Shown here: positions 1-58,296 of the stretch, one piece after another | Layout of the letters: each line of letters opens with the position of its first letter | Numbering within the stretch: the first letter of the stretch is position 1 | Origin: a virus | Virus record (IMG/VR): IMGVR_UViG_3300036826_000588 | Span: 1 to 64,000 of that record | Strand: one strand, 5' to 3' | DNA: 64,000 nucleotides | Program-made: the position numbers and the translations under genes | The notes under the pieces: model-generated | Databases searched by the model: none | What the model saw: the letters and a program-made list of their open reading frames with translations, nothing else | What the model was told of the DNA's origin: nothing

Positions 1-46
1 CGGCCGTGCCCGTAGCTGAGCAGCTCCCGCTGTTCTCGGAGGCAGG

Positions 47-37873: not shown

Positions 37874-39697
37874 ATGGCGCCCAAGAAGAAGTCTCTCGAC
37901 GCAACGATGGCTGCGAAGCCGAACTTCCAGGAACTGGGCGTCTCGGGCACCAAGCTGTTCGCTGGCCTCATCAGCGAAGAGACGGTGCCCCAGCTTCAGG
38001 GGTTCCAGGCATACAAGAGCTACCAGGGCATGAGGCTCGATGCCACCGGTAGCGCGCTCCTCAAGGCGATCGAGCTTCCCATCCGTGCTTCGCGCTGGTT
38101 CGTGAACCCTGCGAGCGACGACCCGAACGACATCAACATCGCCGACTTCGTGCACGACGTTTGCTGGACCTTTGGCTCCCAGTCGATGGACGACATCATG
38201 CGACTCGCCTTTGGGTGTCTCGCGTTCGGCTTCTCGACTCTGGAGATCATCTGGTCGGTCATTGACGAAGGGCCTTGGAAGGGCAAGGTCGGCTGGGATC
38301 GTTTGGCCTGGAGAAGTCAGGCCACCAAGTGGCGCTGGGAGATGGACTACGTCAACGGCAAGCGCCAGCTCGTCGGACTGGTGCAGTTGGCTCCGCCGTA
38401 CTACCAGCAAGTACAGATTCCTCGCAACAAGCTGATGCTTTGGGTGAACGATCTGGAAGGCGACAACTACGACGGTATCTCGTGCCTTCGCAGCGCCTGG
38501 AAGGATTACTACATCCGAGATCAGCTCTACCGAATCAGAGCGATCGGTCTGGAGCGCGGGTACATGGGTATTCCGGTCGCCACTGTGCCCGACGAGTTCA
38601 GTGACGAGTACGCCGGCATCGCGCGCCAGATCGTGGAGACGGTCCGGGCGGACGAGCAGGTGGGAGTGGTTCACCCGGCCAGCATGGACTTCCGTATCGA
38701 ACGCTGGGAGCTGAACGGCCCGGCGATGAACGAGGCCATTCACTACCACAACCGCCAGATGCTGGTCTGCCAGCTCGCGCAGTTCCTGGAACTGGGGTCC
38801 AAGAACGTCGGTTCGTTTGCGCTGTCAAGCGATCAGTCAGACCTCTTTCAGATGGCGATCAATGCCAAGGCGAACTACTTCGCCGAAGTGATGAACCTCC
38901 ACCCTGGCATCCCGCAGTTGATCGGCTTCAACTTCCCCAACGTCACAGCGCAGAACCTGCCGCGCTTGCAGCATGGCGACATTGGGCAGCGGTCGCTGGA
39001 CCGGCTGGGTCGCACGCTCATGGCTCTCGGCCAGTGGGGATTCCTGACGCCTGACAATGCGACGGAGGACCGGCTGCGCCAGATGCTGGACCTTCCCGAG
39101 CGCGAAGAGGCAATCACGAACCGCGCGCTGTACGACCTGATGCAGGAGATCGCACCCTCGGACGTTCAGCACGGACGCCTGCACACCATCGATCGGGTCG
39201 AGAGTCCGCTGGAGGTGGCCGCCGACACCGCGAAGACGAAGCGTATGCAGGCGCTGAAGGCGCCAGCGCCCTCAGCCGCCAGCGCGCCGAAGGGAAGCGG
39301 CTCGCCGGAACAGCGCAACGCCAGCACCCAGGACATGTCGGAGTACCACGCGAAGTTCGCCGAGAACCGAGCCCGGCTTGCCGAGCTCGTCGTACGCCGG
39401 CCGTGGACACGGCCGCAGGGTCGCCCGACGGAGAACCAGCGGATGGCGATGCGCGCGACGGAGGCGATGGTCGAAGCACTCGACGAGTTCAAGAGCGCCG
39501 GTCAGCAACGCCCGGTACGGCCGAGCGTGTGGCACGCGATGCACCGGCGGCCGTACGAGGTCCGCTCGCACGGCGACGCGGTCCGCCTGGAGCCCGGGCG
39601 GCCGCGCACCGTGTTCACGCGGCAGATGGGCCTGGCGCGCAACCACCGCGAGCCGCTTCGAGCGATCCTGCGGCCGCGCGCGACGGCGCCGGCATGA
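37874..39697 (+). CDS. Portal protein (DUF935/Mu gp29-like)
   Basis: ELGVSGT, FGFSTLEIIW, GISCLRSAW, ERGYMGIP, GSFALS motifs; follows the terminase. Confidence 0.85.
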   Translation: MAPKKKSLDATMAAKPNFQELGVSGTKLFAGLISEETVPQLQGFQAYKSYQGMRLDATGSALLKAIELPIRASRWFVNPASDDPNDINIADFVHDVCWTFGSQSMDDIMRLAFGCLAFGFSTLEIIWSVIDEGPWKGKVGWDRLAWRSQATKWRWEMDYVNGKRQLVGLVQLAPPYYQQVQIPRNKLMLWVNDLEGDNYDGISCLRSAWKDYYIRDQLYRIRAIGLERGYMGIPVATVPDEFSDEYAGIARQIVETVRADEQVGVVHPASMDFRIERWELNGPAMNEAIHYHNRQMLVCQLAQFLELGSKNVGSFALSSDQSDLFQMAINAKANYFAEVMNLHPGIPQLIGFNFPNVTAQNLPRLQHGDIGQRSLDRLGRTLMALGQWGFLTPDNATEDRLRQMLDLPEREEAITNRALYDLMQEIAPSDVQHGRLHTIDRVESPLEVAADTAKTKRMQALKAPAPSAASAPKGSGSPEQRNASTQDMSEYHAKFAENRARLAELVVRRPWTRPQGRPTENQRMAMRATEAMVEALDEFKSAGQQRPVRPSVWHAMHRRPYEVRSHGDAVRLEPGRPRTVFTRQMGLARNHREPLRAILRPRATAPA

Positions 39698-39893: not shown

Positions 39894-41879
39894 ATGGACG
39901 CCGCCGTCATCAACCCGGCAGCGCGAGCGATCTGGCGTCGCGAGGACTGGCAGCGCATGGCCGCACTCCACCTTGTGCACCATGGCGGCCACGCAGTACG
40001 CGCCGCGGCGCGCATCCTGCGCCTGCCCAAGAGCACCATCCACGACTGGGTCCGCCAGGGACCGGCCAGCATCCGGGACGAGCGGCTGAGGGCCATCGCC
40101 CAGCGGATCATCGATCGCAATCCCCTGACCGCCTCCGAGGAGAGCTTCGTCGCCGAGGTGCTCGCACGCGCCGAGCATGGGGAGCAGCAGCCCAACCTCC
40201 TCAGCGAGGCCGAGAGCGCCGGCTGCGGCTGCTGCGACGGCTGCCACGACGCCTGCTCGGGTGAGTGCTGCGACGGCTGCCAGCAGGCGCAACCCACCGG
40301 CGTCATGGTGGCGTTCTTCCTGCCGGCGGATGTCGCCCAGCAACTCGCCATGGACCGCGAGGCCGACCCCACCGCCATGCCGCCGGAGGAGCTGCACGTC
40401 ACGCTCGCGTTCCTCGGCCAGGCGGCCGAGCTGGCCGACCCGGGCCGGCTGTGCCGGGTGGTGGCGGGCTTCGCCGCTGTCGCGCCGCCGGTGATGTGCG
40501 CGATCTCCGGCGCCGGCCGCTTCGCGGTGGGGGACCGGGTCGTCTACGCGTCGGTAGACGCGCCCCAGTTGCCGGCGTGGCGCCAGCGCCTGGTCGAGCA
40601 CCTGGCCCTGGGCGGCTACCCACCATCGACGCGGCATGGCTTCACGCCGCACGTGACGTTGTGCAATCCGGACGGGCCCGTGACGCTCGACGTCCGGCCG
40701 ATCGAGTTCGCCGCGACCACACTGACGGTCGCCATCGCGGGCGCGCGGTACGACTTCCCGCTGGAGGGCGAGAGCGCAACGTTCGCTGAACCGAAGCCTG
40801 ACACGCCGCCGGCCCGTCCGGATCCGGACTCCGCGGCGGCCGGGCAGGATCTCCTCGATGGCCTGGAGCAGGCGCTGAAGGCAGCGAAGCGCGTTGCGCA
40901 GAACCACAAGCCGGTGGAGGGGCCAGGCGAGCCAGGCGACGCCGAGGAGCACACGCGCGCAGAGACCGCAGACGACGAGCTGGACGAGATCCAGGAGCAT
41001 CCGCCGACGCAGATCATGGACCGCCTCGCGCTGGAGGCGTGGCACCGCTACATCACCGCGCTGGCGAACGACTCCCCCCACAGCCGTGCCATCTACGTCG
41101 CGCGGAAGATCGACCCGGACTTCTTCGTGACGGACGAGCAGGGCCGGAAGCTCATCCACGCGTTGGGGAAGGGCGACGAACCGGTGATCTTCGGCTGGGC
41201 GCCAGGGAACGTGAAGCCGCCGCCGCACGTCACTTCGGTCTTCGACCAGTTCGAGGGATCCGCGCAGCAGGAGCGCGAGCTGGCCAGCTACCTCTTCGAC
41301 CTGGCCAAGGAGTCCTACCTGGAGGGCGTGAACGCCCAGCTCCTCGTGCTGGGGTTGTCGCTGGAGGCGGCCGTCACGGACCCGACCGTGCTGAGCGAGC
41401 TGGGCCAGGCGACGGCCTCGATCGCCCAGGGGATCATCAACAGCTACAACCGCGCGTTGGCGGCCGAGGTCTACTCCGCCTGGATCGAGCAGCGCAGCAC
41501 GCTGGGCCGCCAGTCATCGCTCCGAACGCTCTGGGAAGACGTCAATCGCTGGGCCGAGGCGCGCGCGCACGAGCGGGCGGGGATGATCTCCGCCACCGAG
41601 TACGGCCGCTGGTTCAACCGCGGCGTCCTCGACTTCCTCTCGCACAACGAGGAGCTGCTGGGCAGCGATGCGACCGTGTACGTCACGCCTGACGAGTGCC
41701 TGTGCTCGCTCTGCGCGACCGTCGTCGCCGGCAGCCCCTACACGCTGGCGGAAGCACAGCAGCTTGGCCTGCCGCTCCATCCGAACTGCGTGCACTTCGC
41801 CGAGCTCTCGATGTCACCGGTAGCCGACCTCGCGGTGGACGTCCTCTGGACGGCTCAGCTCGCCGACGTCGCAGCGTGA
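39894..41879 (+). CDS. Head morphogenesis (MuF-like) protein with HTH, Cys-rich linker and 2H phosphoesterase domain
   Basis: LHVTLAFLG and FTPHVTL (two HxT motifs); C-terminal TEYGR...CSLC...PLHPNCVH. Confidence 0.8.
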   Translation: MDAAVINPAARAIWRREDWQRMAALHLVHHGGHAVRAAARILRLPKSTIHDWVRQGPASIRDERLRAIAQRIIDRNPLTASEESFVAEVLARAEHGEQQPNLLSEAESAGCGCCDGCHDACSGECCDGCQQAQPTGVMVAFFLPADVAQQLAMDREADPTAMPPEELHVTLAFLGQAAELADPGRLCRVVAGFAAVAPPVMCAISGAGRFAVGDRVVYASVDAPQLPAWRQRLVEHLALGGYPPSTRHGFTPHVTLCNPDGPVTLDVRPIEFAATTLTVAIAGARYDFPLEGESATFAEPKPDTPPARPDPDSAAAGQDLLDGLEQALKAAKRVAQNHKPVEGPGEPGDAEEHTRAETADDELDEIQEHPPTQIMDRLALEAWHRYITALANDSPHSRAIYVARKIDPDFFVTDEQGRKLIHALGKGDEPVIFGWAPGNVKPPPHVTSVFDQFEGSAQQERELASYLFDLAKESYLEGVNAQLLVLGLSLEAAVTDPTVLSELGQATASIAQGIINSYNRALAAEVYSAWIEQRSTLGRQSSLRTLWEDVNRWAEARAHERAGMISATEYGRWFNRGVLDFLSHNEELLGSDATVYVTPDECLCSLCATVVAGSPYTLAEAQQLGLPLHPNCVHFAELSMSPVADLAVDVLWTAQLADVAA

Positions 41880-47074: not shown

Positions 47075-47127
47075 GCACCTGCCCGGGTCGCTTCGCGCGC
47101 GCGAGGCGGTAGCGTTGAAATTGGGTG

Positions 47128-47156
47128 TTGACCTCCGCTCCACCGTGGTGTATGGT
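47128..47156 (+). promoter_or_regulatory. Promoter of tRNA array 1
   Basis: TTGACC-17-TATGGT. Confidence 0.75.
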
Positions 47157-47165
47157 CAAAGCGTC

Positions 47166-47291
47166 GTGAGGACACAACCCTTCTTCGTCAACCAGCAGCC
47201 GTGCATCGCCCGTGTGGGCGATCCCATGGCACCCTGGCATGCCGTCGAAGGCCAGGCCCTCGGGACGAAGGAGGTAGGAGCGGGTAGGTAG
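47166..47291 (+). CDS. Putative leader peptide of tRNA array 1 (41 aa)
   Basis: MRTQPFFVNQQPCIARVGDPMAPWHAVEGQALGTKEVGAGR; GTG 9 nt after the -10 box; overlaps an antiterminator strand. Confidence 0.55.
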   Translation: MRTQPFFVNQQPCIARVGDPMAPWHAVEGQALGTKEVGAGR

Positions 47292-47317
47292 AGCTCCGAA
47301 GCTCCGGAACCCGCTCC

Positions 47318-47355
47318 CGAAGGGCCTGGCAGGACGCCAGGCCCTTCGTCGTTGT
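47318..47355 (+). terminator. Attenuator-like terminator hairpin
   Basis: CGAAGGGCCTGGC-AGGAC-GCCAGGCCCTTCG with a weak T tail; 5' arm can instead pair with 47251-47265. Confidence 0.65.
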
Positions 47356-47432
47356 AGGGGCGCGGAGTCGCCCCGATCGTCCGGCTGAACTTTGTCATCC
47401 GAATAGAGCGAAGAACACCAACGGTGGCGGCT

Positions 47433-47505
47433 GCTCGTGGGGCCCGCTGGCGTGGGCGCCTGCCTGTCGAGCAGGAACAGGACGGTTCGATTCCGTTCAC
47501 GAGCG
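47433..47505 (+). tRNA. tRNA-Asp(GTC), atypical (G8, no encoded CCA)
   Basis: Cloverleaf; loop CTGTCGA; TTCGATT. Confidence 0.8.
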
Positions 47506-47535
47506 CCGCCACCTCTTTTCAGCCATGCCGCATCG

Positions 47536-47779
47536 GGCTGTACCGTTCTCGGCAATGGCTGACCAGAGTGAGCAGCAGACAGGAACGTTGGCCGCGCGCG
47601 TCGACGTGATGCTCGTGAGCACCGAGAAGGATGGGCCGCAAGGGTTGCGGACCTTCGTTTCGGTTCGGAGGACAGACTTCCTCCTGGAGATCGCGGAGGC
47701 GCTCCACACTGCGGCGGAGGCGATGGAAGACCACGCAACAGCGGGCTCTCCATCGCCTCCGCGACAGACGAACGACTGA
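47536..47779 (+). CDS. Small hypothetical protein inside the tRNA array
   Basis: ORF frame of 47525-47779; start uncertain (likely ATG near 47555). Confidence 0.35.
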
Positions 47780-47792
47780 CGGACGGTTCGGT

Positions 47793-47866
47793 TGGGGGGT
47801 GGCCAAGTTGGTAAGGCGCCGGGCCCTGAACTCGGAGACGCGGAGGTTCAAGTCCTCCTCCCCCAG
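47793..47866 (+). tRNA. tRNA-Gln(CTG)
   Basis: Cloverleaf; loop CCCTGAA (C33). Confidence 0.9.
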
Positions 47867-47883
47867 CCGAGCCGATCCGACAC

Positions 47884-47972
47884 TCCAGGGATGCTGTGAC
47901 GGTATTGGCGGCCGGGCTTTGAACTCGGTGGGGCGAGAGCCCTCGGGGGTTCGACTCCCTCCCCTGGAACCA
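47884..47972 (+). tRNA. tRNA with TTG (Gln) anticodon and long variable arm
   Basis: TCCAGGG/CCCTGGA acceptor, loop CTTTGAA, GGGC-GAGA-GCCC arm, ACCA. Confidence 0.8.
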
Positions 47973-48052
47973 GCAGCTACCATGGATCCATGACGAAGCC
48001 ACTGCTATGACGGCCCCGGACTGGCCGAGGCCGATCCACAGGAGGCTTTGCC

Positions 48053-48319
48053 GTGTACCGCATGACCCTCTTCCTCCCGCCTTGGGCCGTCAGCACCGAT
48101 GACCAGGCGATGGAAGTCTGCGATCAGATCGCCACGCTGTGCGACCAGCTCCTGGGCCGCCCCAGCTCGGGCGAGTCGAAGCTCACGTACGTCCTGACCA
48201 GCGAGGTCGACGAAGACGAAGATGACGACGACGCCCAGGACCGGTGGATGCAGGAGAACCTGTTCCACCCGCGCGTGCGCGGCGTCATCATCCCGCGTCC
48301 GGTCGGCGAACTTCAGTAG
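48053..48319 (+). CDS. Small acidic hypothetical protein
   Basis: AGGAGG RBS. Confidence 0.55.
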   Translation: MYRMTLFLPPWAVSTDDQAMEVCDQIATLCDQLLGRPSSGESKLTYVLTSEVDEDEDDDDAQDRWMQENLFHPRVRGVIIPRPVGELQ

Positions 48320-48320
48320 T

Positions 48321-48396
48321 GCGGGCGTAGCTCAGTTGGCAGAGCGCGGGCTTGCCAAGTCCGAGGCCGCGGGTTCGAGGCCCGCCGCTCGCTCCA
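48321..48396 (+). tRNA. tRNA-Gly(GCC)
   Basis: Canonical cloverleaf, TCCA. Confidence 0.95.
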
Positions 48397-48401
48397 CCCG
48401 A

Positions 48402-48476
48402 GGGCTCGTAGCCGAGTCTGGTCAGGCACCGGTCTGCAAAACCGGTACGACGCCAGTTCAAATCTGGCCGAGCCCT
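48402..48476 (+). tRNA. tRNA-Cys(GCA)
   Basis: Loop CTGCAAA, U73. Confidence 0.9.
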
Positions 48477-48823
48477 CCGGTGGAACCCTCTCGTCAGAGC
48501 GGCTGGATGACCAGGCGCGACGGTTTGCCGCTGGCCTCCAGGGCCGCGTTGACGAACGAGATCGCGTCGATGATGGCCATCGTGATGTCTTCCGGATCGT
48601 AGCCATGGAGGACGCTGGCGCTTCCAGCGCTGCTCTCGATGTCCTTGGCGCTCACGATGACGACGGCGCGCACGTCGGCGGCCTCCGGGCCGAGCTCCAC
48701 GAGCACCTGTCTCATGTGATCGGCGATGCGGCTCAGTCGGTTCGGCGGTTCGAACGCCTTCCAGGCGCCGGGCGTCAGGCCGTCAGGCACGATGAACTCG
48801 GTCATGTGACCAGTATCGACCAC

Positions 48824-48900
48824 GCCGAGGTAGCTCAGATGGTAAGAGCGCTCGCCTGAAAAGCGAGAGGCCGCTGGCCCGAACCCAGCTCTCGGCGCCA
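48824..48900 (+). tRNA. tRNA-Phe(GAA), variant T-loop CCCGAAC
   Basis: Cloverleaf, GCCA end. Confidence 0.85.
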
Positions 48901-49123
48901 CCTTCCCCGGTGGATCGGGTTTGCAGCTCCGCTGACGACGGATGGGACGATCGTCTGCCGGCGGCAACGTCGGCACCCGCGAACGCGGCATAGCCGATCG
49001 CCCTGGTCAGGCGTCGAGCTCGCCCGATCCCCGGGGAAGGTGGTAGGATTGCAGCGTACGCCCCCGGTCCGCCTCTCACGGAAGCCGCCGGGGGCATGGC
49101 TTCTCCCTCCAGCGCTTCGCCGT

Positions 49124-49199
49124 GCCCGGGTAGCTCAGATGGGAGAGCGCCTGTGTCACATACAGGAGGCCACTGGTTCGAGGCCAGTCCTGGGCACCA
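49124..49199 (+). tRNA. tRNA-Val(CAC)
   Basis: Cloverleaf, ACCA. Confidence 0.92.
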
Positions 49200-49302
49200 A
49201 TCCCTTCCGCATCTTCGCTGGGAGGAGCCGGACAGTAGTCGCTGACGAGCGGTGAAGGTGCCGACGAGCCGCCAGCTCGCTCCCTCCAGCGGCGATGCGT
49301 AC

Positions 49303-49377
49303 GCCCGAGTAGCTCAACGGTAGAGCGCCAGCATGACACGCTGGAGGCAGGAGGGTCGGCACCTCCCTTGGGCACCA
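49303..49377 (+). tRNA. tRNA-Val(GAC), variant T-loop GTCGGCA
   Basis: Cloverleaf, ACCA. Confidence 0.85.
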
Positions 49378-49381
49378 ACAC

Positions 49382-49467
49382 TGGCAGGTGGCCGAGAGGT
49401 AAGGCGCCCGGCTGTTAACCGGAGACCACCGAGAGGTGCGCGGGTTCAAGTCCTGCCCTGCCAGCCA
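49382..49467 (+). tRNA. tRNA-Asn(GTT) with long variable arm
   Basis: Loop CTGTTAA, CACC-GAGA-GGTG arm, GCCA. Confidence 0.88.
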
Positions 49468-49495
49468 ATCCCTACAACCACGTTGAGCTGCTGAT

Positions 49496-49571
49496 CGGGC
49501 GGTGGCGCAGTAGGCAGCGCGCTTGGCTGGGGGCCAAGAGGTCGTCGGTTCGAGACCGACTCGCCCGACCA
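49496..49571 (+). tRNA. tRNA-Pro(GGG)
   Basis: C1-G72, ACCA. Confidence 0.92.
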
Positions 49572-49637
49572 GCAGCTCAACATCGGGGTCGAGCGGCGCC
49601 CTGACGGGGGTCGCTCGGCGCCGGCCCTTCACAACAT

Positions 49638-49715
49638 CGCGCGGCAGAGCAGTCAGGAGTGCTCGCTTGCCCCGGACGCAAGAGATCGGTGGTTCGAGTC
49701 CACCTCGCGCGACCA
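49638..49715 (+). tRNA. tRNA-Pro(CGG)
   Basis: Loop CCCGGAC (C33), C8, ACCA. Confidence 0.88.
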
Positions 49716-50100
49716 GCAACTTTCCTCCGCAGACCCTGGACGATCGGCGGTCCGTTTGAGTACCATGCTCGCTGGCATGCGAATGGCAGCGTGGGCGTGG
49801 GTGGGTTGTGGCATTGGTGCGTTCTTGGCGGGTGTGGGCGTGGGCATGGTGCTCGGGTACTACGGCTTCATCCACGGCTGGTTCTGGATGCCACTCCCGC
49901 CGCCTGTGATGTAGGAATACACCCTCTCTGAGGCCGCCTGTGCGTGCGCAGGCGGCCTCGCTGAGCCTGAGCATTGAGTAAGCTGAGGTCGCTGGTCGAG
50001 TTCGTCATCGCGCTGTTGGTCATGTGCGCGATCGTCGTTCTGGTTGTCCTGGTGGCTTCCTACTTCGGCGGCTTCCCAGCGTCGTAGCCTCCGGTCCTGT

Positions 50101-50173
50101 CGGGCGGTAGCGTAGCGGTCAACGCGCGCGGTTTGGAACCGCGAGGTCCGGTGTTCGACTCACCGTCGCCCGA
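50101..50173 (+). tRNA. tRNA-Pro(TGG)
   Basis: Cloverleaf; no encoded CCA. Confidence 0.88.
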
Positions 50174-50381
50174 CAGGCTCGCGGGGCAACCGAACAGGCC
50201 CGGTACTCCGGAGCCATGATCTCCAGATTCCTCTTCGGGCTCGCGGCGCTGGCCTTCCTGCTGGCGCTCGCTCACGTCACCCTCGGCACGCTCGATCTGC
50301 TGCCGCTGGGGCTGTTCCTTCTCGCGCTGGGGCTGCTGGCCGCAGACGTGCCGTGGCCGACCTGGCGCCGGCCGTGAACGC

Positions 50382-50457
50382 AGGGGTGTAGCTCAGCCGG
50401 CAGAGCGCTCGTCTCCAAAACGAGTGGTCGAGGGTTCGATTCCTTCCGCCCCTGCCA
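50382..50457 (+). tRNA. tRNA-Trp(CCA)
   Basis: Canonical cloverleaf, GCCA. Confidence 0.95.
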
Positions 50458-50480
50458 ACTTCCGTCGATCGCTCGATGAT

Positions 50481-50556
50481 GGGGACGTAGCTCACCAGGG
50501 AGAGCACCTGTTTCGCAATCAGGAGGCAGAGGGTTCGAGTCCCTCCGTCTCCACCA
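50481..50556 (+). tRNA. tRNA-Ala(CGC)
   Basis: G3:U70 pair, ACCA. Confidence 0.93.
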
Positions 50557-50598
50557 TCGGGTTATCCGTCGCTCACGCTCATTGTCGCCATGCTTCAT

Positions 50599-50674
50599 GG
50601 CCCGTTCGCCAAGTGGTCAAGGCGCGGGACTTTCAATCCCGTATACGCGGGTTCGAGCCCCGCACGGGCTACCA
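50599..50674 (+). tRNA. tRNA-Glu(TTC)
   Basis: Cloverleaf, ACCA. Confidence 0.93.
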
Positions 50675-50902
50675 TTCGATTCGCGAACTCGACGGGAGGG
50701 GCGGCCCACGAGGCCGTCCACCCCTCGACAGGGCAACTACGCCATCGATGGAACCTTGCCGACGGAATGAGGTACCGCGGCACAATCACCCTCACGCTGC
50801 CGGTCGTGGCCGACCTGGCACCCGAGGTGAGCTTGAACCTCGTGGTCGGGCCGGTGCGCACGCGGCACCTCCAGCAAACCGCTTTGCAAGGAGAGCCGCG
50901 CG

Positions 50903-51241
50903 ATGGCGACGACAGTTCAGCTCACCGACGTCCAGGAAGTCCGGCTGTCGATCAGCCCGAAGGACAGCCAGGGGAACCTGGCGTCGGTTGACGGTGTCCC
51001 GACCTGGGAGTCGAGCGACGAGTCGGTCCTGACCGTCGCGGCCGTCTCCGACGACGGCCTGATGGCGGATGCCGTGACGGTCGGCCCGCTGGGAACCGCG
51101 ACCGTGACGGTCACCGCCGACGCGGACCTGGGCGACGGCGTCACCACGCTGAGCGACACGGTGGACATCACCGTCGTGGCGAGCCAGGCGTCCGCCCTGA
51201 ACGTGGCGGTGGGCACGCCGACCGAGCGCCCGGCGGCGTAG
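50903..51241 (+). CDS. Ig-like domain protein
   Basis: AGGAG RBS; PTWESSDESVLTV...G.ATVTVTA pattern. Confidence 0.7.
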   Translation: MATTVQLTDVQEVRLSISPKDSQGNLASVDGVPTWESSDESVLTVAAVSDDGLMADAVTVGPLGTATVTVTADADLGDGVTTLSDTVDITVVASQASALNVAVGTPTERPAA

Positions 51242-51303
51242 CGTCCATTCGGACCTGAAGACGGCAGTACCGGGCGTCCGGCCCGGGAAGGTGAAGTGCC
51301 GTC

Positions 51304-51332
51304 CGACGGCGGGGCACGGTGCCCCGCCGTCG
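51304..51332. repeat. Perfect 14-bp inverted repeat
   Basis: CGACGGCGGGGCAC-G-GTGCCCCGCCGTCG. Confidence 0.7.
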
Positions 51333-51341
51333 CTTACTTGC

Positions 51342-51412
51342 TGCGGAGCCAGGCGGCCGCGGGGCCTCATAAGCCCTGCCGGGCTCGGTTCGACTTCCGG
51401 CCTCCGCAACCA
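51342..51412 (+). tRNA. tRNA-Met(CAT)-like with truncated D-arm
   Basis: TGCGGAG/CTCCGCA acceptor, loop CTCATAA, TTCGACT, ACCA; only about 12 nt between acceptor and anticodon stems. Confidence 0.65.
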
Positions 51413-51432
51413 CTTCGACTCCAACCAAGCGT

Positions 51433-51511
51433 GCCGCGTTGGGCCAGTCTGGTTCAAGCCACCACTCCCTCAAAGTGGAGATCGCGGGTTCAAATCCCGC
51501 CCGCGGCACCA
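51433..51511 (+). tRNA. tRNA-Glu(CTC)
   Basis: Loop CCCTCAA (C33), ACCA. Confidence 0.9.
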
Positions 51512-51875
51512 ACCTCAACATCGAACGAGCGATCCACGCGGTTACCCTTCAACACGAGAAGACCAGCACTCGCTCCGGGAAACCACTTCCCTGTCGGCCA
51601 GTCTTCTCCGCTGGCGGCCGGCAGGACACGGATCGCTCAGCCAGCAGAGTACGCGAGGAGGTGGACGACGTGCCCGGGTAGTTATGTCGAAACGACCGAA
51701 CTACCTTGGAACCTTCCTCTCCGACATGAAGGAAGCACGTCGCTACTCGTGCGACTGGCGCAGCGCACCAGACAAGGCCGCCGCGCACCGCAAGTTCCGA
51801 CGCCTGGCACGCCAGCTCCTACTCCATCGCCAGGAGCCGCCAACGCGACTGGGCATGGGCTGGTACTGGTGAGGG

Positions 51876-52731
51876 TCAGCGGCGGAAGAGGACCCAGGCG
51901 AGGGCCGCCGCCAGGAAGATCACCAGCGCCGCCAGTACGCCGATGGTGACGTACAGGCCGTTGAGGTAGCGGCCAATGCCGCGCCCGAGGTCTTGCACGA
52001 GGGGAGCGTAATCGAACGTCAGCCGGGGTGGCCGTGGCCGAGAGGAGAGGCGCCACGCTGTGACCGTGGTATACGCGGGATCGTCGACCCGCCGGTCACC
52101 CCAGCGACGTTCAGGACTCACCGTCGTCCCCGTCGCCGTCCTCGTCATCGTAGACGGGCCGGTGTGGGTCGCGCAGGCGGAAGAGGATCTCCTGGGCCCT
52201 GAACAACGTGTCCATCATCGGCACGATGCGCTGCCTGACCTTCAGGCTCTCGTACTCCTCGCGAGACGGGACGCTGTCCAGGAGCTGGTTCGCGCGCTCG
52301 CGCAGCGTGCCCGGCATGCGATCCACGCCCTGGAGGTTCAGGTCTTCGAGCTGGAAGAGTAGGTCGTCGATCCCGTGGATAACGCGGTCGAGCTGGTCCT
52401 TGCGCCACTTGCGGCGGATCTCCTCCACGTGGAGACGTTCGATGTCGCGGTTGGCTTCCTGGATCATCATGGCCTACCGGAGATAGACGCTGCGGCATGT
52501 TGCCGCGGTCGGTCAGTCGTCGGTCGGCCTGAACGTCCAGATGTGCCCTTTGGTGCACCTCGCGATCCACTGGAGGGGGTCGTCGGTGATGTAGTCGCTG
52601 TCCAAGTTCACTTGGCCCGCGGCCACGCAATCCGGACAGAACGCCTTCGCGGCAGGGATGTCGCGACCGGCGATGGTGACGCTGGTGATCTCGCGGGTCT
52701 CCCCGCGGTTCGCAGCCATTCGGAAGATCAT
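51876..52731 (-). other. Three small antisense genes inside the tRNA array (51876-52148 membrane protein, 52111-52470, 52513-52731 zinc ribbon)
   Basis: ORF track and plausible composition. Confidence 0.55.
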
Positions 52732-52742
52732 ACTCTCGACGT

Positions 52743-52819
52743 GCGCGGGTAGCTCAGCCTGGCAGAGCAGCGAGCTGATATCTCGAAGATCGGAGGTTCA
52801 AGTCCTCCCCTGCGCACCA
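52743..52819 (+). tRNA. tRNA-Ile(GAT)
   Basis: Cloverleaf, ACCA. Confidence 0.92.
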
Positions 52820-52847
52820 ACTTGAAGTACCATCCCCGCTCTCACTT

Positions 52848-52921
52848 CCGGCGGTAGCTCAGGAGAGTAGAGCGGTTCCTTTATAAGGTTCAGGTCGCGG
52901 GTTCGAGGCCCGTCCGCCGGC
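52848..52921 (+). tRNA. tRNA-Ile(TAT)-like, weak anticodon stem, no CCA
   Basis: CCGGCGG/CCGCCGG acceptor, loop TTTATAA, two T-T mismatches in the stem. Confidence 0.65.
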
Positions 52922-53131
52922 TGAGAGCTGGGGGGTGGGTGGCCATGTAGCTCGCCCGCAGGGGACCATCCATCCGTGGGTTGGGAGGCCAGGCGGATCA
53001 TCTCAGCCGGTCCACCGACGCGGCCACCACCCCGCAGCCGCAGCGAAGTGTGGCAAACTGCGCCGTCCTTTGGTATAGGGCACGTGATCCGCCTTTGGGA
53101 CATACGCCCGCCGCTTGGAATTCCCGATCGT

Positions 53132-53207
53132 GCGCCCGTAGCTCACCGGATAGAGCGCCTCCCTGCGAAGGAGGAGGCAGCAGGTTCGATTCCTGCCTGG
53201 CGCACCA
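53132..53207 (+). tRNA. tRNA-Arg(GCG)
   Basis: Loop CTGCGAA, A20, ACCA. Confidence 0.9.
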
Positions 53208-53391
53208 TCTCTCTTCACATAATTGGTGGTCGTGCGTCGTACCGCTTCGCTACCTTCCCGGCCCGGTATGGCACAGTTCCTTGCAGGGCTCGCGATTGGT
53301 TTGATCGTCGGCGCGTGCGGCGGCGTGTTCGTCATGGCTGCTCTCGTCAGCAGCGCTCGTTCGGACCGGCCTGGATAGGTCGGCCCCTCAC

Positions 53392-53467
53392 GCCCTTGTA
53401 GCTCAGTGGTAGAGCAGCCGCCTTGTAAGCGGAAGGTCGGGGGTTCGATTCCGCCCCAGGGGCTCCA
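53392..53467 (+). tRNA. tRNA-Thr(TGT)
   Basis: Cloverleaf, TCCA. Confidence 0.9.
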
Positions 53468-53661
53468 TCTGCAAGTTTTGGCCGTCTCACCTCCCCTATA
53501 TAGGTAGGAGGTGATTCCAGGATGGCCCACCCGAAGTGCTGCGTTTGCGATCGACCGGCGGATCGGATCGACGAGGAGTATGGCGAGGCGTTCTGCCGCC
53601 GGTGCTGGGACAGCTACCCGCCAGAAGAACAAGGCCCATACCGCCTCATCGATCCTGACGA

Positions 53662-53738
53662 GGGCCTGTAGCTCAGCGGATCAGAGCGCCACGGTTCGAA
53701 CGTGATGGTCGCGGGTTCGAGTCCTGCCAGGCCCTCCA
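53662..53738 (+). tRNA. tRNA-Arg(TCG)
   Basis: Loop GTTCGAA, TCCA. Confidence 0.9.
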
Positions 53739-53801
53739 CTCATACCCTCACAAGCCTTGTCACTGGCGCGTTTCTGACAATGTGGCTTATAGTGGCCCTT
53801 C

Positions 53802-54188
53802 ATGGCAACGAGAACACGGCGGAGAACGGCGGGCGCCGGTGAGAGCATCGCGGCTCAGATCCAGCAACTCGTGAAGGAGCGCGACGACCTCAAGGTCGAG
53901 AACGCGAACCTCAAGGCTCACTTGGAGGCGATCAGCTCAGCGCTGAGGCACGTGGGCGCCCAGGCAACGGGTGGTCGCGGGCGCGGGCGCAGCTCCGGGC
54001 TGGCAGCGGCTGCCCCGGTCTCCGAGAAGCGCAAGCGCCGGCCGATCACCGACCCGGAGGTGCTCGCGCGGCGTCATGCAGCACTCGCGAAGGCGCGGGC
54101 CGCGCGTGCAGAGCGCCTGGCGGCAGCTCGCGCAGCCGCACAGGGAGAGACGGCGGCGCCGGCCGAGCCCGCGGTGGTCGAGGCGTAG
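53802..54188 (+). CDS. Basic coiled-coil protein (possible nucleoid-associated protein)
   Basis: Coiled coil then RGRGR and KRKRR; TATAGT box just upstream. Confidence 0.6.
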   Translation: MATRTRRRTAGAGESIAAQIQQLVKERDDLKVENANLKAHLEAISSALRHVGAQATGGRGRGRSSGLAAAAPVSEKRKRRPITDPEVLARRHAALAKARAARAERLAAARAAAQGETAAPAEPAVVEA

Positions 54189-54215
54189 AGCGCAACGCGT
54201 GCAGGACAGGTTGAC

Positions 54216-54291
54216 GCCCCCGTAGCTCAGAGGACAGAGCAGGGAGCTTCTACCTCCAAGGCCGGGCGTTCGAGTCGTCCCGGGGGCACCA
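54216..54291 (+). tRNA. tRNA-Arg(TCT)
   Basis: Cloverleaf, ACCA. Confidence 0.9.
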
Positions 54292-54798
54292 CCTGACTGC
54301 TACACTCCCTTCGTGAGCGGGGGACCCGGAAAGCTGCTCTCCAAGCCGCCGAAGACAGGCTGGGGGTCGTGGCTGCTGACGGCGGCGATCATCGCCGGGG
54401 CGATCGTGGCCGAAAGCCTCTTCCGTCCCCAGACAAACTCGATCATCCGCGTATGGACAGACATCGCGGGCCGACCCAGCGTTGAAGTCACCGAAAGCGA
54501 GCGTGACCATCGTGTCTGAGCCCGCCGCAGTCCCCGCAGCAGTGCCGACCGTTCAGGTTCAGGTGGGGCTGCACTTCAAGCTGGTCTTCATCGTCCTGAC
54601 GCTGATGGTCGCGTTCCTCTTTCTGGCCGCCGGCTTCCTGGCCCTGTTTGGGAACCGCTGGGGTGGAGATCCGGGGGCCATTTCGTCCGTCACCAGCGCG
54701 CTGATGGAGGCGGAGAAGTACCTCGTTGGCGGACTCGTCGGCATGGTGGGCGGGAAGGCCGTCCACTAAGCCCCCAGGCGGCGTGCGGCCCGAATACA

Positions 54799-55527
54799 AT
54801 GGGCCGCGGCATGAGCAACGACCTCCCTCAACTGTCTCCTGATGGCAAGTGGCGCTGGGATGGCCAGCGGTGGGTTCCCAACGAGAGCGCTCCGCCAGGC
54901 GGGGCGACGAACAGCATGACGCCGCCCGTTGCGCCGGCCAGACGCAGTCGCCGCTGGCCCTGGTTCGTCGCCGTGGCTGCGGTGCTGTTCGTCGGAGTCT
55001 GCACCACCGCGGTCGCGAACTCGGGTGGCAGCGGACGCAAGGCTGCTGGCGTGTCGGCCACCCAGGCGCCGGCAGCGCCGACCCAGGCGCCCACGGCAAG
55101 GACTGCCCAGCCCGCTGCTCCGGCTCGCGACGGGTCCTGCTCGCCGCAGCCCTGCGCCAACGACAACTACGGCTGGATCGTCAACGTCAGCAGCTTCAAG
55201 TACGACGCGCCCAGCGGCAACGAGTTCGAGAAGCCCGAGGTCGGCAACGTGTACGTCACCCTCGCGGTGACCTTCACCAACAAGCTCGGCAGTGAGCAGC
55301 ACGCGAACCCGCTCAACTTCGTCCTGCTGGACGGGGCCGGGGTCAAGCATACGGTCACGTTCACCGACGCCTGCCCCATCTGGGACGCCGTCAATCTCAC
55401 GCCTGGCGCGTCGTTCGGACCGAAGTGCCTGGCGTTCGAGGCGACCGCGGGCAAGCCGGGCGGCCTGACGCTGGTCTGGACGCCGTCACTGCTCGGCGGC
55501 GGCGACTACGACATCAAGCTGAGCTAG
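54799..55527 (+). CDS. DUF4352 (MPT63-like Ig-fold) membrane protein
   Basis: N-terminal QLSPDGKWRWDG, TM helix, FEKPEVGNVYV...NPLNFVLLDG.G. Confidence 0.75.
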   Translation: MGRGMSNDLPQLSPDGKWRWDGQRWVPNESAPPGGATNSMTPPVAPARRSRRWPWFVAVAAVLFVGVCTTAVANSGGSGRKAAGVSATQAPAAPTQAPTARTAQPAAPARDGSCSPQPCANDNYGWIVNVSSFKYDAPSGNEFEKPEVGNVYVTLAVTFTNKLGSEQHANPLNFVLLDGAGVKHTVTFTDACPIWDAVNLTPGASFGPKCLAFEATAGKPGGLTLVWTPSLLGGGDYDIKLS

Positions 55528-55566
55528 CGCGCGACCCGAGGCGCGAGTACATCGATCCGTGAACGT

Positions 55567-55641
55567 GCGTCCGTAACTCAGCGGCAGAGTGGCGGCCTCT
55601 TAAGCCGAGCTGCGTGGGTTCGAGTCCCACCGGACGCACCA
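55567..55641 (+). tRNA. tRNA-Lys(CTT)
   Basis: Cloverleaf, ACCA. Confidence 0.92.
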
Positions 55642-55940
55642 TCTTCAACTCGAATCCGACACCCCAGGCGGCGGCCCTGGTAGGCTCGCGGCGACGGGCG
55701 GTGGATGGCCTCCGATCTCCCTGGAGGTCTGCAAGATGCAGAACATCATCGTCGGTCGCTATGAACCCACCGAGGGCCTGCTGCGCCCTGACGGCACCGT
55801 CGAGCGCGTGTGGGACGGGTGGATCGAGCCGGCGGACCGATCATGGATCGCCTTCGTTCGGACGGCGGACCACCTGCCGGAGGTCTACCTGAACCGCGAC
55901 CCGGAGACGGGAGCTGTCATCGAGTAGGTCCCCCGGGCGT

Positions 55941-56015
55941 GCCGGTGTGGCATAGGTGGCTGTGCAGTTGCCTTTTAAGCTCCAGACGCGGGTTCGACTC
56001 CTGCCGCCGGCACCA
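55941..56015 (+). tRNA. tRNA-Lys(TTT), mismatched anticodon stem
   Basis: Loop CTTTTAA, ACCA. Confidence 0.8.
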
Positions 56016-56248
56016 CCGCTTGCATCACGCAGGCCATCTCCTCCATGGACATGGACGCCTGTTGGAGCGCTTTGAGGAACGGCCGCAAGTCCACCATCAG
56101 CCGGGCTGAATGGTCATGGCCGGCCATTCGGAGCCAGGCCGCCCGATCGAGGCCGTGGAGCTCCGCAAGCCGTTGCTGTTCCTGCTGTTCGTGACGCGCG
56201 CGATCGGCGGCGGCGGCGGTGGCCATCTTGCTCTGGAACGTCACGTAC

Positions 56249-56326
56249 GCCTCCGTAGCTCAGCGGACAGAGCGCCGGCATCCGAAGCCGGGTCCGTCGC
56301 AGGTTCGATTCCTGCCGGAGGTACCA
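56249..56326 (+). tRNA. tRNA-Arg(CCG)
   Basis: Cloverleaf, ACCA. Confidence 0.9.
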
Positions 56327-56762
56327 TCCCGCCCACCTACTGGCTGGGCGCGCTCTCCCGCTTCAGCTTCAGGTACGCCTCTCGCCACTGGTCGACGAGG
56401 CTGCCCGCCCTCGCCGCCTGGACGCGAGCGATCGCTGCGTTGTGCCAGGCGACGACGGTCCAGTGGACCACTGCCCACCCGATGATCGAGAGCGCGAACC
56501 AGAACATGGCCAAGCCGAAGACGAACCAGTCATGCTTGACGGCGGCCGCAACGGCACCACTGCCGTTGATGCTGGCAGCCAGGAAGAGGATCCAGCTCAA
56601 GATCGTCTGCGCCCGCCGGGCACGGGCCCACAGGTCAGCAAAGTCCGACTGCGAAGCTCGGACTTGGTCGGCATCGTCAGAGGAGAGGGGGAGGGAGTCA
56701 GCCATGGCTCCGCGGCACAATACAGGGTGGGGACCCGATCGCGCTACCTTTCAGATCATCGT

Positions 56763-56838
56763 GGCCCCGTAGCTCAGGGGATAGAGCGGCAGCGTCCTAA
56801 GCTGCGCGCCGGGGGTTCAAGTCCTCCCGGGGCCACCA
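56763..56838 (+). tRNA. tRNA-Arg(CCT)
   Basis: Cloverleaf, ACCA. Confidence 0.93.
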
Positions 56839-57091
56839 TCTTCTCTTCGGTACTATCCCCGACATGACGGCCGAACTGGAAACCGAGCTGGAGCCGGACC
56901 TGGAGCCGGCGGTGTGCCTGACAGAACACATCGCCCACCTGATCCGGCGCACGGAGCGCAAGGCCGTGTGCGGGGCCTCGCCAGTCCTGCGTCTCTCCTC
57001 GATGGAGGATTGGCAGACCGCCTGGCGCGAACAGGCGAACACCTGGGACATCTGCCCTGGCTGCGCGGCCGGAGCAGTCGACGAGCTGAAC

Positions 57092-57167
57092 GCGGGCGTG
57101 GTGTAGACGGCAAGCACGGCGGTCTTCCAAATCGTCGGCACGGGTTCGAAGCCCGTCGCCCGCTCCA
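57092..57167 (+). tRNA. tRNA-Gly(TCC)
   Basis: Cloverleaf, TCCA. Confidence 0.92.
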
Positions 57168-57282: not shown

Positions 57283-57705
57283 TCAGGACGCCGCGGCGAG
57301 CACGTCCTCCTTGGAGTAGCCCATCAGCTCGGCGGCCGTGAGCAGGAGGTTCTTCCACTCCAGCTCCAGCTCCAGCTCCTGTTCGCCCCAGCCACCGGCT
57401 GCGCGCTTGAGGGTCTCGATCAGCACCTTCGCCACCGGCAGGAACATCGCCGGCTGGACGCCGTAGCGGCGGTGCCGTTCCCCGAGTGCGCAGAGGTGCG
57501 TCTTCAGGTACTCCGGGTCCTCCAGGTGGAGCATCAGCTCGGCCATCTTCTCGCCGAACATCCGGACCTGGCCGTCCATGTTCCGCGGGAAGATGCGGCG
57601 CAACTCCGGGCACTCCTGGAACAGCGACTCGTAGAAGTGCTGGACCAGCCGGCCGTCGCGGTTGACCGCTTCCTCGAACGACGTCCGCAGCAGTTGTACG
57701 TTCAC
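57283..57705 (-). CDS. Single-domain globin (flavohemoglobin/Vgb-type globin fold)
   Basis: FYESLF..CPELRRIF, LGERHRRYGV (proximal His), GGAGG RBS; the frame stays open upstream to 58011. Confidence 0.85.
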   Translation of the reverse strand: MNVQLLRTSFEEAVNRDGRLVQHFYESLFQECPELRRIFPRNMDGQVRMFGEKMAELMLHLEDPEYLKTHLCALGERHRRYGVQPAMFLPVAKVLIETLKRAAGGWGEQELELELEWKNLLLTAAELMGYSKEDVLAAAS

Positions 57706-58088
57706 GTCCCCTCCCGGTGAGCGGGGGTACGCCGTCCAGGGCTGCGGGCCACGCTCCACGCGCGCGACGCCAAGGGCTTCCCGGAGCTGCCAGTGCGCAC
57801 TCCCAGCGCTGGCAGCCTCACCGGCGAAGACGAACTCCGCGCCCTGGTCATGCAGCGCCTGCATGACCTCGACGGCCTCGGCGCGCCCGCCCTGGCAAAC
57901 GGTGGCCCACCAGCGAGGACCGATCCTCATGCAGACGTACGTCAAGCGCTGCCAGGCGGGTAAGAGGTCAAGCTCCTGACGCCTTTCGCCCAGCCGTTGA
58001 AGCCAGCGCACGCCGACTACCCCCTCTCGCTCACGATCGGGGGATTGAAGCGCAGTCGAGACCGCTGTGTCAAGTTTCCGACACTGGC

Positions 58089-58117
58089 TTGACGAATGGG
58101 CAGAAGTGCGCTATGGT
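58089..58117 (+). promoter_or_regulatory. Promoter of tRNA array 2
   Basis: TTGACG-17-TATGGT, same -10 as the array 1 promoter. Confidence 0.75.
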
Positions 58118-58126
58118 GACGATACC

Positions 58127-58174
58127 GTGTTCAGGTTGTATCTCTACTTGCTACTTAGTCGGTCATCCCTGTAG
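58127..58174 (+). CDS. Putative leader peptide MFRLYLYLLLSRSSL
   Basis: GTG 9 nt after the -10 box; 11 of 14 codons are Leu/Tyr/Ser; overlaps hairpin 58151-58206. Confidence 0.65.
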   Translation: MFRLYLYLLLSRSSL

Positions 58175-58207
58175 CCCGCAAGGGCCTCTCGGGGATGCCG
58201 CTGTAGT

Positions 58208-58296
58208 GGGTGGTGAACATCGGACCGGCTCGGTGCTCCGTCTCGAAAACGGATGAGGCTGCAAGGCCAGGGGTTCAACTCCTCCGCCACCCGCCA
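58208..58296 (+). tRNA. tRNA-Ser(CGA) with 8/4 fold
   Basis: GGGTGGTG/CGCCACCC 8-bp acceptor, 4-bp T-stem, long variable arm, GCCA. Confidence 0.85.

Follow-up and report, generated by a model that had tools for sequence, protein, structure and literature searches.

What controls the transcription of a long tRNA array in a phage? The array considered here belongs to a soil phage known from an 89.8-kb IMG/VR virus record (IMGVR_UViG_3300036826_000588), of which we analysed the initial 64 kb (64,000 nucleotides, ~68% G+C; hereafter the window). A Mu-type portal gene lies at 37874-39697 of the window, which also contains a terminase fragment; no close cultured relative was found, identity of the portal to those of cultured phages reaching 31% at most. 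ARAGORN predicts 34 tRNA genes in the window, 28 of them in one array on a single phage strand, as in L-arrays, long same-strand tRNA runs on mobile elements that are linked with rtcB and RNA-repair genes. To our knowledge, phage tRNA arrays are usually seen as an aid to codon usage or as an escape from tRNA-cleaving defences, not as regulated units. The regulation of tRNA genes is poorly known, and a study of Anabaena arrays, in the part cited here, calls its own promoter repeats first indications (PMC8421152).

We propose that ribosome-mediated transcription attenuation, of the kind known from the whiB7 uORF, operates at 47128-47355, the segment that heads the 28-tRNA operon (Table 1), and that this segment represents a family in which such attenuators are applied to tRNA genes and rtcB; on balance, this is the reading to which we lean. 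If it is right, the phage probably transcribes the array tRNAs only while ribosomes decode slowly.

Table 1. Features of the leader and of its presumed cargo, in window coordinates.
Feature	Coordinates	Strand	Basis
Sigma-70-type promoter: TTGACC (47128-33), 17-nt spacer, TATGGT (47151-56)	47128..47156	+	hexamer pattern
Predicted 3-nt 5' UTR (GTC)	47163..47165	+	prediction, assuming a transcript start at the purine 7 nt past the -10
Leader ORF: GTG start at 47166, 41 codons, TAG stop at 47289-91	47166..47291	+	translation of the window
Proposed sensor codons 2-28, upstream of A	47169..47249	+	composition, position
Hairpin within the ORF	47198..47230	+	folding
Segment A, GCCAGGCCCTCGGGA, antiterminator 5' strand, ORF codons 29-33	47251..47265	+	pairing, folding, family comparison
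Hairpin between A and B, holding the stop codon (47289-91)	47277..47317	+	folding
Segment B, partner of A in the antiterminator and of C in the putative terminator	47315..47330	+	pairing, folding
Putative terminator hairpin, 13 perfect bp, loop AGGAC	47318..47348	+	folding
Conserved motif ACTTTGTCATCCGAATAGAGC (~20 nt) in the read-through transcript	47389..47409	+	family comparison
28-tRNA gene array, 16 isotypes, without Leu/Ser/Tyr/Met, presumed regulated cargo	47433..57167	+	ARAGORN

An earlier note, made from the letters of the window alone, had described TTGACC and TATGGT hexamers 17 nt apart with a GTG codon 9 nt further on, and all of these lie at the positions claimed. The same note had likened this geometry to that of a second promoter, and the 17/9 spacing does recur at 58089, there with a 15-codon ORF. 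Sites of the form TTGACN-16..18-TANNNT number eight in the window, as compared to 0.36 expected. At five of the eight strong promoters of the phage, ATG or GTG stands exactly 6 nt past the -10, marking clear leaderless genes; at both tRNA promoters (47128 and 58089) the start codon, GTG 47166 in the first case, stands 9 nt 3' of the -10, which is 3 nt beyond the usual leaderless position. Given this offset, a 3-nt 5' leader without a Shine-Dalgarno sequence is likely, and the ORF is therefore likely not strictly leaderless. The promoter at 58089 precedes tRNAs for Leu, Tyr and Ser only, a set that includes an unannotated class II tRNA-like gene at 58208-58292; we refer to its 15-codon ORF region as leader 2. 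No further strong plus-strand promoter was found in a scan of 47.2-58.0 kb.

The RNA predicted to follow the promoter can adopt two alternative structures. Segment A, within the ORF, can pair with segment B as had been proposed; the duplex has 10 + 5 bp and a 1-nt bulge, and the 13-bp hairpin with B as its 5' arm was likewise confirmed. The A:B duplex amounts to -22.5 kcal/mol, a value that 0/300 dinucleotide shuffles of the ORF equalled, and the fold of 47164-47360 has a z-score of -4.3, with 0/200 shuffles equally stable. B is common to A:B and to the hairpin, as the claim of mutual exclusion had it, and both alternatives are conserved in relatives. Antitermination must be kinetic, given that the terminator fold exceeds the best A:B fold in stability by ~20 kcal/mol. 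The promoter-to-hairpin transcript would measure ~185 nt. Past the hairpin, the tail (TCGTTGTA, in 47349-59) is T-poor, with 4 T in 8, which is why a simple terminator scan omits it. One exact 220-nt metatranscriptome contig from an RNA run (X4; 47182-47401) bridges the hairpin, a point against the attenuation proposal; being an assembled contig, it is uninformative on transcript start, end or level. A DNA run (X5) carries a variant of the leader that resembles L016, a relative introduced below.

To place the leader in a family, we scanned metagenomes for the three-segment layout and obtained 15 contigs. Seven are family members: L014, L016 and five near-identical contigs of the L003 type. The other eight matches proved to be unrelated repeats or coding sequence and were rejected. 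L016 (1.6 kb) differs little from the window leader. L014 (2.1 kb), with ~72% identity to the window leader over 324 nt, comes from a diverged phage relative; it reads TTGACA-16-TACAAT, 9 nt, ATG, a 40-codon ORF, A, B, C and a T-rich tail, and a compact tRNA array with a window-like gene order lies behind it. The five L003-type contigs have the same layout with an unrelated peptide and rtcB downstream. In species-representative genomes, the hairpin pattern matches at least 120 places in many phyla; its sequence is that of a common terminator and we discarded it as a family marker, since it is not diagnostic. Among the matches listed, two are family members (L112 and L143). These bacterial loci share a divergent AbrB/MazE-like gene, and we used this gene as an anchor in 159 genomes of the order containing L112 and L143: it is present in 16 of them, with a leader at 12 of the 16 loci and none at L160, L161, L162 and L148.

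The anchor for sampling was thus either a single stem sequence or the neighbouring AbrB-like gene. Twenty loci were examined; the four just named, in which the leader is absent, were removed by eye and the rest filtered on terminator and ORF. The resulting 16 leaders comprise three phage-type contigs and 13 bacterial MAG loci, and form ~12 groups below roughly 85% identity. As they were picked by terminator and ORF filters, '16/16' in what follows describes a chosen set and is not an independent test.

Other routes yielded little. Neither the terminator nor the post-terminator motif in its bacterial form gave any match in pattern scans of IMG/VR; a scan with the window-only form of that motif returned eight contigs unrelated to the phage, about the number expected by chance on a rough estimate. 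In one of these eight, L019, the motif lies upstream of a tRNA array. Among 401 genomes sampled from the phylum of G001 the motif matched three times as compared to four for the control, which is noise. An IMG/VR protein search with the upstream 188-aa protein found no relative, the portal search led to a single 4-kb contig that ends short of the leader, and exact look-up of 10 candidate ORF products near the leader found none in the protein collection. DNA searches of cultured phages and plasmids with 3 kb of the window, with the window leader and with the L164-type leader returned tRNA matches or nothing.

All 16 selected leaders have -35 and -10 hexamers spaced as at the window promoter, then 9-11 nt, an ATG or GTG, an ORF of 31-58 codons and a hairpin; the ORF stops 13-33 nt ahead of the terminator 5' arm in each (16/16). 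Segment A always lies late in the ORF, within its final third and 11-37 nt short of the stop codon, and a homologous 9-nt core of A is found in all 16. In 11/16 leaders, at least 292 of 300 shuffles fall short of the predicted A:B pairing; it is weak in the remaining five (L154, L163, L164, L165 and L166), where 15 to 104 of 300 shuffles equal it. L014 and the 13 bacterial leaders all show a clear T-run past the hairpin (14/16), while the window and L016 are T-poor. The alternatives themselves were folded for six leaders. In 6/6, RNA that ends before C has A:B as its minimum-energy fold, also with nt 1-45 masked, and full-length RNA adopts the terminator (window, -104.1 kcal/mol); a hairpin at the ORF end, between A and B, forms in 6/6 as well. 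Folding of both alternatives, a check proposed in the earlier note, thus gave A:B before C and the terminator at full length throughout.

The other proposed check, covariation in homologous leaders, revealed one change in A compensated in B and others mostly compatible with wobble pairing. At A position -5, G->A is met by C->U in B in L155 and L157, leaving a G.U in the terminator, while the same change gives an A.C mismatch in L154 and L156. Three other changes in the A core yield G.U pairs with B, and position 0, at the end of A:B, is mismatched in L164 and L165. The closing pair of the terminator is C-G in the window and A-U in L014, and the hairpin at 47198-47230 persists in L014 with its loop changed from GUGU to GGAA and one A-U pair changed to G.U. 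Comparison therefore supports the interpretation of this region as a candidate terminator/antiterminator coupled to a leader ORF, since both are conserved in L014 and in the 13 bacterial loci.

Is the ORF itself used? A frame that opens at the promoter-proximal start and closes 13-33 nt short of the terminator 5' arm is present in 16/16 selected leaders, whereas the remaining two frames are open across an equal span in 9/32 cases. GC is highest at the third codon position in 15/16 ORFs (mean 0.63/0.57/0.74 by position), and the start codon is GTG in the window and ATG in L014. A purine-pyrimidine-pyrimidine triplet precedes it in the seven leaders inspected (window, leader 2, L154, L155, L156, L014 and L143). 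Leader pairs at about 81-85% identity have ORFs of equal length (153 = 153, 132 = 132 and 177 = 177 nt), and 15-19% of positions differ between the length-matched ORFs. Substitutions in close leader pairs fall on the three codon positions in the proportions 8/10/11, 8/8/6 and 14/8/11; this lack of bias indicates that the peptide product is not under selection, and coding is not demonstrable from the substitutions. Moreover, a +1 insertion close to the 3' end of the ORF is tolerated in L016 and in the variant from run X5, and peptides are unrelated between leader groups, save for the residues encoded by segment A. The phage clade keeps a central QPC(I/V)AR.GDPMAPWH, with four synonymous changes there between the window and L014. 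We infer that the ORF is translated, and the pattern agrees with a role for the act of translation and none for the peptide.

The composition of the ORF gives a clue to what might be sensed. Its 41 codons specify 18 amino-acid types, among them every one of the 16 array isotypes; Ser and Tyr are absent and Leu occurs once, exactly as the earlier note had counted. Set against chance, 18 types alone are unremarkable (P = 0.10) and the presence of all 16 isotypes has P = 0.01, while a full set of 16 isotypes combined with absence of Ser and Tyr and with one Leu or none has P = 1.5e-4 and occurs in 0/7,933 real 40-residue windows of the phage's proteins. The complementarity to the array that had been claimed also holds upstream of A, a region (codons 2-28) that we picked as the sensor after seeing the data. 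In those codons of the window, 15/16 array isotypes occur together with Met, while Leu, Ser and Tyr are missing (P = 1.9e-4 against a proteome null, 3.3e-5 against a random-codon null). The pre-A region of L014, in which 12 of 27 residues differ from the window, has 16/16 and again no Leu, Ser or Tyr (P = 1.5e-5 or 2e-6 under the two nulls); as both leaders are homologous, these P values are not independent. L016 and L014 carry Ser, or Tyr and Ser, only 3' of segment A. The pre-A codons use 18 (window) and 21 (L014) distinct array tRNAs, as compared to 13.0 +/- 1.9 expected (window P = 0.0075). Leader 2 has Leu, Tyr or Ser at 11/14 residues (P = 3e-7). In the bacterial leaders amino-acid diversity is mildly raised (mean z = +1.0 or +1.5) and singly non-significant in most, a weak family-wide trend on which we do not build the proposal. 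These figures suggest, for the phage leaders, a tuning of codons to the cargo.

That cargo recurs across the family. At most 1.2 kb downstream, 13/16 leaders have tRNA genes and/or rtcB: tRNA genes follow 9/16 and rtcB 7/16, with both behind three and neither behind three (L147 and L159, where a small ORF follows, and L166). rtcB alone follows four leaders (L003, L156, L157 and L163), and at L112 the order is leader, four tRNA genes, RtcB, two tRNA genes and an AAA ATPase. Of the motif at 47389-47409, CCGAATA, at most 90 nt past the terminator, is present in 13/16 leaders, exactly those with tRNA and/or rtcB cargo. The gene order of the array is common to the window and L014 and partly common to the bacterial arrays of L167 and L169; the bacterial arrays with partly matching order comprise 19 and 25 genes. 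Behind this leader type in bacteria, the tRNAs form one array, Tyr, Ser and Leu included, and the leader has these residues before A.

How might these parts act together? In the attenuation model, the strong sigma-70-type promoter would give rise to an RNA that opens with the 41-codon leader ORF, translated from the GTG at 47166 without a Shine-Dalgarno sequence. Segment A, in codons 29-33, could pair with B, the 5' arm of the presumed terminator hairpin B:C. A leading ribosome that keeps in step with RNA polymerase would cover A or come to rest at the stop codon in the A-B hairpin; with A covered, or with the ribosome at the stop, B:C would form and transcription would end near 47350. Should the ribosome fall behind within codons 1 to ~25, or fail to load at all, A would be free as B emerges, and free A would pair with B, block the terminator and allow the array to be transcribed. 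Stalling would be what switches the device, and read-through could be triggered solely from codons 5' of A. Because the pre-A codons sample the amino acids of the array, and because Leu, Tyr and Ser have a leader of their own, the device would be a broad sensor of tRNA or decoding shortage with feedback on tRNA supply.

Two other accounts would deny the ORF or its translation this role. The region might be an untranslated RNA switch or small RNA in which a protein, tRNA or other ligand sets A:B against B:C and the ORF is incidental. The strong predicted structure (z = -4.3), the substitutions without codon-position bias, a start codon 3 nt off the leaderless geometry of the phage and the highly conserved motif past the terminator are all compatible with this, but against such a switch count a frame that is open from a promoter-proximal ATG or GTG to just before B in 16/16 leaders (other frames, 9/32), with GC3 highest in 15/16 and variation between GTG and ATG starts, and the statistics of amino-acid and tRNA sampling. 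A search of 47100-47440 against Rfam release 15 found no family at E <= 0.1 (best ftsZ-DE, E = 0.37, and SNORD17, E = 0.88), which also speaks against a known structured RNA in the window leader, and the same library had no match outside tRNA genes in L014, L016 and L005. We consider an untranslated switch improbable. Still less credible, to the point of being very improbable, is an ordinary gene for a small protein, equipped with a terminator of its own and a functional 41-residue product, behind which the array is read from elsewhere or by leakage. The QPC(I/V)AR.GDPMAPWH core kept in the phage clade, with its four synonymous changes between the window and L014, is what a functional peptide would predict; against it count the absence of family-wide peptide conservation outside the residues encoded by A, the unbiased substitutions, the tolerated +1 insertion near the 3' end (L016 and the run X5 variant), the conserved A:B complementarity and the lack of another strong plus-strand promoter at 47.2-58.0 kb.

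A closer competitor accepts the same attenuator but takes it for a generic switch responding to translational stress, such as antibiotics or ribosome shortage, so that the match to the array would be a by-product of a long and diverse ORF. In the part of the source cited here, the whiB7 uORF acts as such a generic sensor (PMC10274678). Matching of isotypes is impossible at the 4/16 family leaders with rtcB alone, and the raised diversity of the bacterial leaders is mild and mostly non-significant. The phage leaders point the other way: 15/16 and 16/16 isotypes before A with no Leu, Ser or Tyr (P = 1.9e-4 and 1.5e-5), sensor codons that use 18 and 21 distinct array tRNAs as compared to 13.0 expected, and a leader 2 with 11/14 Leu, Tyr or Ser ahead of a purely Leu/Tyr/Ser array. 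We regard the generic switch as unlikely, if less so than the two accounts above.

A more specific version of the attenuation model can be drawn from the two phage leaders, and we offer it tentatively, as a possibility that falls short of even confidence. The phage tRNA genes may form two regulons, one of class I isotypes under leader 1 and one of class II (Leu, Tyr and Ser) under leader 2, each gated by a matching mini-ORF. It would then sense shortage by isotype group, caused for example by anticodon nuclease cleavage, and replace the tRNAs of that group. With the same portable switch heading bacterial tRNA/RtcB islands, this could amount to a mobile tRNA-damage response shared by phages and bacteria.

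Leader-peptide control has well-known precedents. In the classical attenuators of the trp, his, leu, thr and ilv operons, a leader peptide governs competition between antiterminator and terminator through stalling at codons for the regulated product. They have four segments, a leader led by a Shine-Dalgarno sequence, runs of one to three amino acids and enzymes as cargo. The phage leader would share the leader-peptide logic of these amino-acid operons, with tRNA genes instead of enzymes as its presumed cargo.

The nearest functional parallel is the whiB7/wblC uORF of actinobacteria. In the portions of the sources cited here, its efficient translation leads to a rho-independent terminator and slow translation to an antiterminator and read-through, and the conditions that elicit a response include lack of many amino acids, tRNAs and aminoacyl-tRNA synthetases, besides ribosome inhibitors (PMC10274678, PMC7157823). 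Like that uORF as described there, the phage leader ORF is long and diverse in composition. The whiB7 uORF is, however, Ala-rich, while Ala accounts for 5 of 41 residues in the phage ORF, close to its share of the phage proteome (12.7%); its cargo is a transcription factor in place of tRNA genes or rtcB; and, unlike the whiB7 uORF so far as these sources describe it, the phage ORF starts a few nt from the predicted transcript start. No sequence relation of the phage leader to the whiB7 leader could be demonstrated.

Other systems share single traits. In Pseudomonas aeruginosa, the PA5471.1 leader peptide with predicted terminators gates the RtcB-like armZ; it is induced by ribosome-targeting drugs via stalled ribosomes, and attenuation there awaits confirmation according to the cited portion of a review (PMC12057347). 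That system differs, by the same account, in belonging to a proteobacterium, in ArmZ being an anti-repressor of MexZ and in having no involvement of tRNA genes. Leaderless leader ORFs act as attenuators among the mycobacterial polycysteine sORFs (10.1101/834739) and the leader peptides of Deinococcus deserti (PMC4007540). Like these, as they appear in the parts cited, the phage ORF lies at or near the transcript 5' end without a Shine-Dalgarno sequence and is proposed to control what lies downstream. They are, though, rich in one amino acid and control genes for amino-acid biosynthesis or aminoacyl-tRNA synthetases, whereas the phage ORF samples nearly all amino acids and precedes tRNA genes.

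For the cargo, the closest likeness is to Anabaena, where translational stress co-induces long tRNA arrays and rtcB; long tRNA arrays are described in the cited part of that study as horizontally mobile and as present also on phages and plasmids (PMC8421152). The cargo of the phage family and the logic of silence until translation is impaired are alike. The means differ: in the parts cited, a repressor controls the Anabaena arrays by binding direct repeats that overlap the -10 and the start of transcription (PMC8421152, PMC10272220), while leader-ORF attenuation is proposed for the phage. The TrcR direct repeats TGTWNWWNWNNWGTANYNWA, in the 2-nt-spacer form, have no match in the window at up to 2 mismatches. 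The terms 'attenuat', 'leader' and 'terminator' are absent from PMC8421152, as are 'attenuat' and 'leader' from PMC10272220, and a full-text search of main articles found no description of leader-ORF attenuation of tRNA genes. The kind of mechanism is already known from whiB7; its proposed application to a phage tRNA array, and to bacterial tRNA arrays and rtcB, appears to be new.

If the attenuation model is true, it would explain how long tRNA arrays and rtcB stay silent and then switch on under translational stress, and phages would gain a built-in sensor for depletion of host tRNAs. The leader family, spanning phage contigs and bacterial tRNA/rtcB loci, provides a set of natural variants of this candidate switch.

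Downstream of the proposed terminator, 13 of the 16 leaders of the family carry a conserved motif, ACTTTG..A.CCGAATAG(A)GC, 20–50 nt 3' of that structure, and these 13 are exactly the leaders with tRNA or rtcB cargo. By contrast with these cargo-bearing leaders, those of three bacterial loci, L143 (1711–2105), L159 and L166, are of the family type without the downstream motif, and they precede a small ORF led by a Shine-Dalgarno sequence, not tRNAs or rtcB. The window's form of the motif also occurs in an unrelated low-GC phage contig of 178 kb (L019), with a terminator on one side of it and a tRNA array on the other; across 401 sampled genomes, the motif was not found above control.

Coordinates of the features discussed in this part
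Feature	Position	Remarks
Post-terminator motif	window 47389–47409; L003 7628–7647; L112 3074–3093	
First gene after motif	L167 468–552; L168 381–465; L169 11510–11594	85-nt class II tRNA, Tyr(GTA) by ARAGORN
Second promoter and mini-ORF	window 58089–58215	TTGACG-17-TATGGT, 9 nt, GTG 58127
Class II tRNA-like gene	window 58208–58292	anticodon CGA (Ser); Rfam tRNA-Sec model
Five strong promoters	window 6638, 18933(-), 20245, 21793, 22099	ATG/GTG exactly 6 nt after -10
2'-5' RNA ligase/LigT-domain protein	window 39894–41879	661 aa
Globin-domain protein	window 57283–58011(-)	on the opposite strand, in the gap that separates the two tRNA arrays
Ro60/TROVE protein	window 61740–63524	

The long tRNA arrays of three bacterial loci (L167, L168 and L169) parallel the window array in gene order: after Tyr(GTA) come Asp, Gln, (Cys), Phe, Val, Asn, Pro, Trp and His. 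The Tyr tRNA stands first in these bacterial arrays, whereas in the window it has moved to the second array. The bacterial islands (L112 whole; L003 4200–12200) run in the order divergent AbrB/MazE-like gene, leader, then tRNAs and/or RtcB. Next to them lie genes for an AAA ATPase (DUF5925), a Band-7/SPFH protein, a Pirin-type cupin and a sortase-domain protein. In Anabaena, the table of the TrcR regulon, a repressor-controlled set with long tRNA arrays and rtcB, likewise has entries for an AAA ATPase, a slipin and a cupin protein (PMC10272220).

The second promoter of the window precedes an ORF of 15 codons with the product VFRLYLYLLLSRSSL*, in which Leu, Tyr and Ser make up 11 of the 14 residues after the start (P = 3e-7). 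This leader region holds no U-tract terminator. In the long hairpin found there instead, the Tyr-Leu-Leu codons (58144-54) form one arm and 58203-13 the other, an arm that overlaps the 5' end of the adjoining downstream tRNA-like gene, and the target of the hairpin may be tRNA folding or processing, not termination. That gene would be the first of the Leu/Tyr/Ser array: it scores 34.5 bits (E = 2e-5) against the Rfam tRNA-Sec model, under the gathering score, and ARAGORN makes no call for it. At the five strong promoters of the window with the 6-nt spacing, codon 2 is AAC in every case. Together with the tRNA arrays, the LigT, globin and Ro60/TROVE genes resemble a region for RNA repair and the supply of tRNAs.
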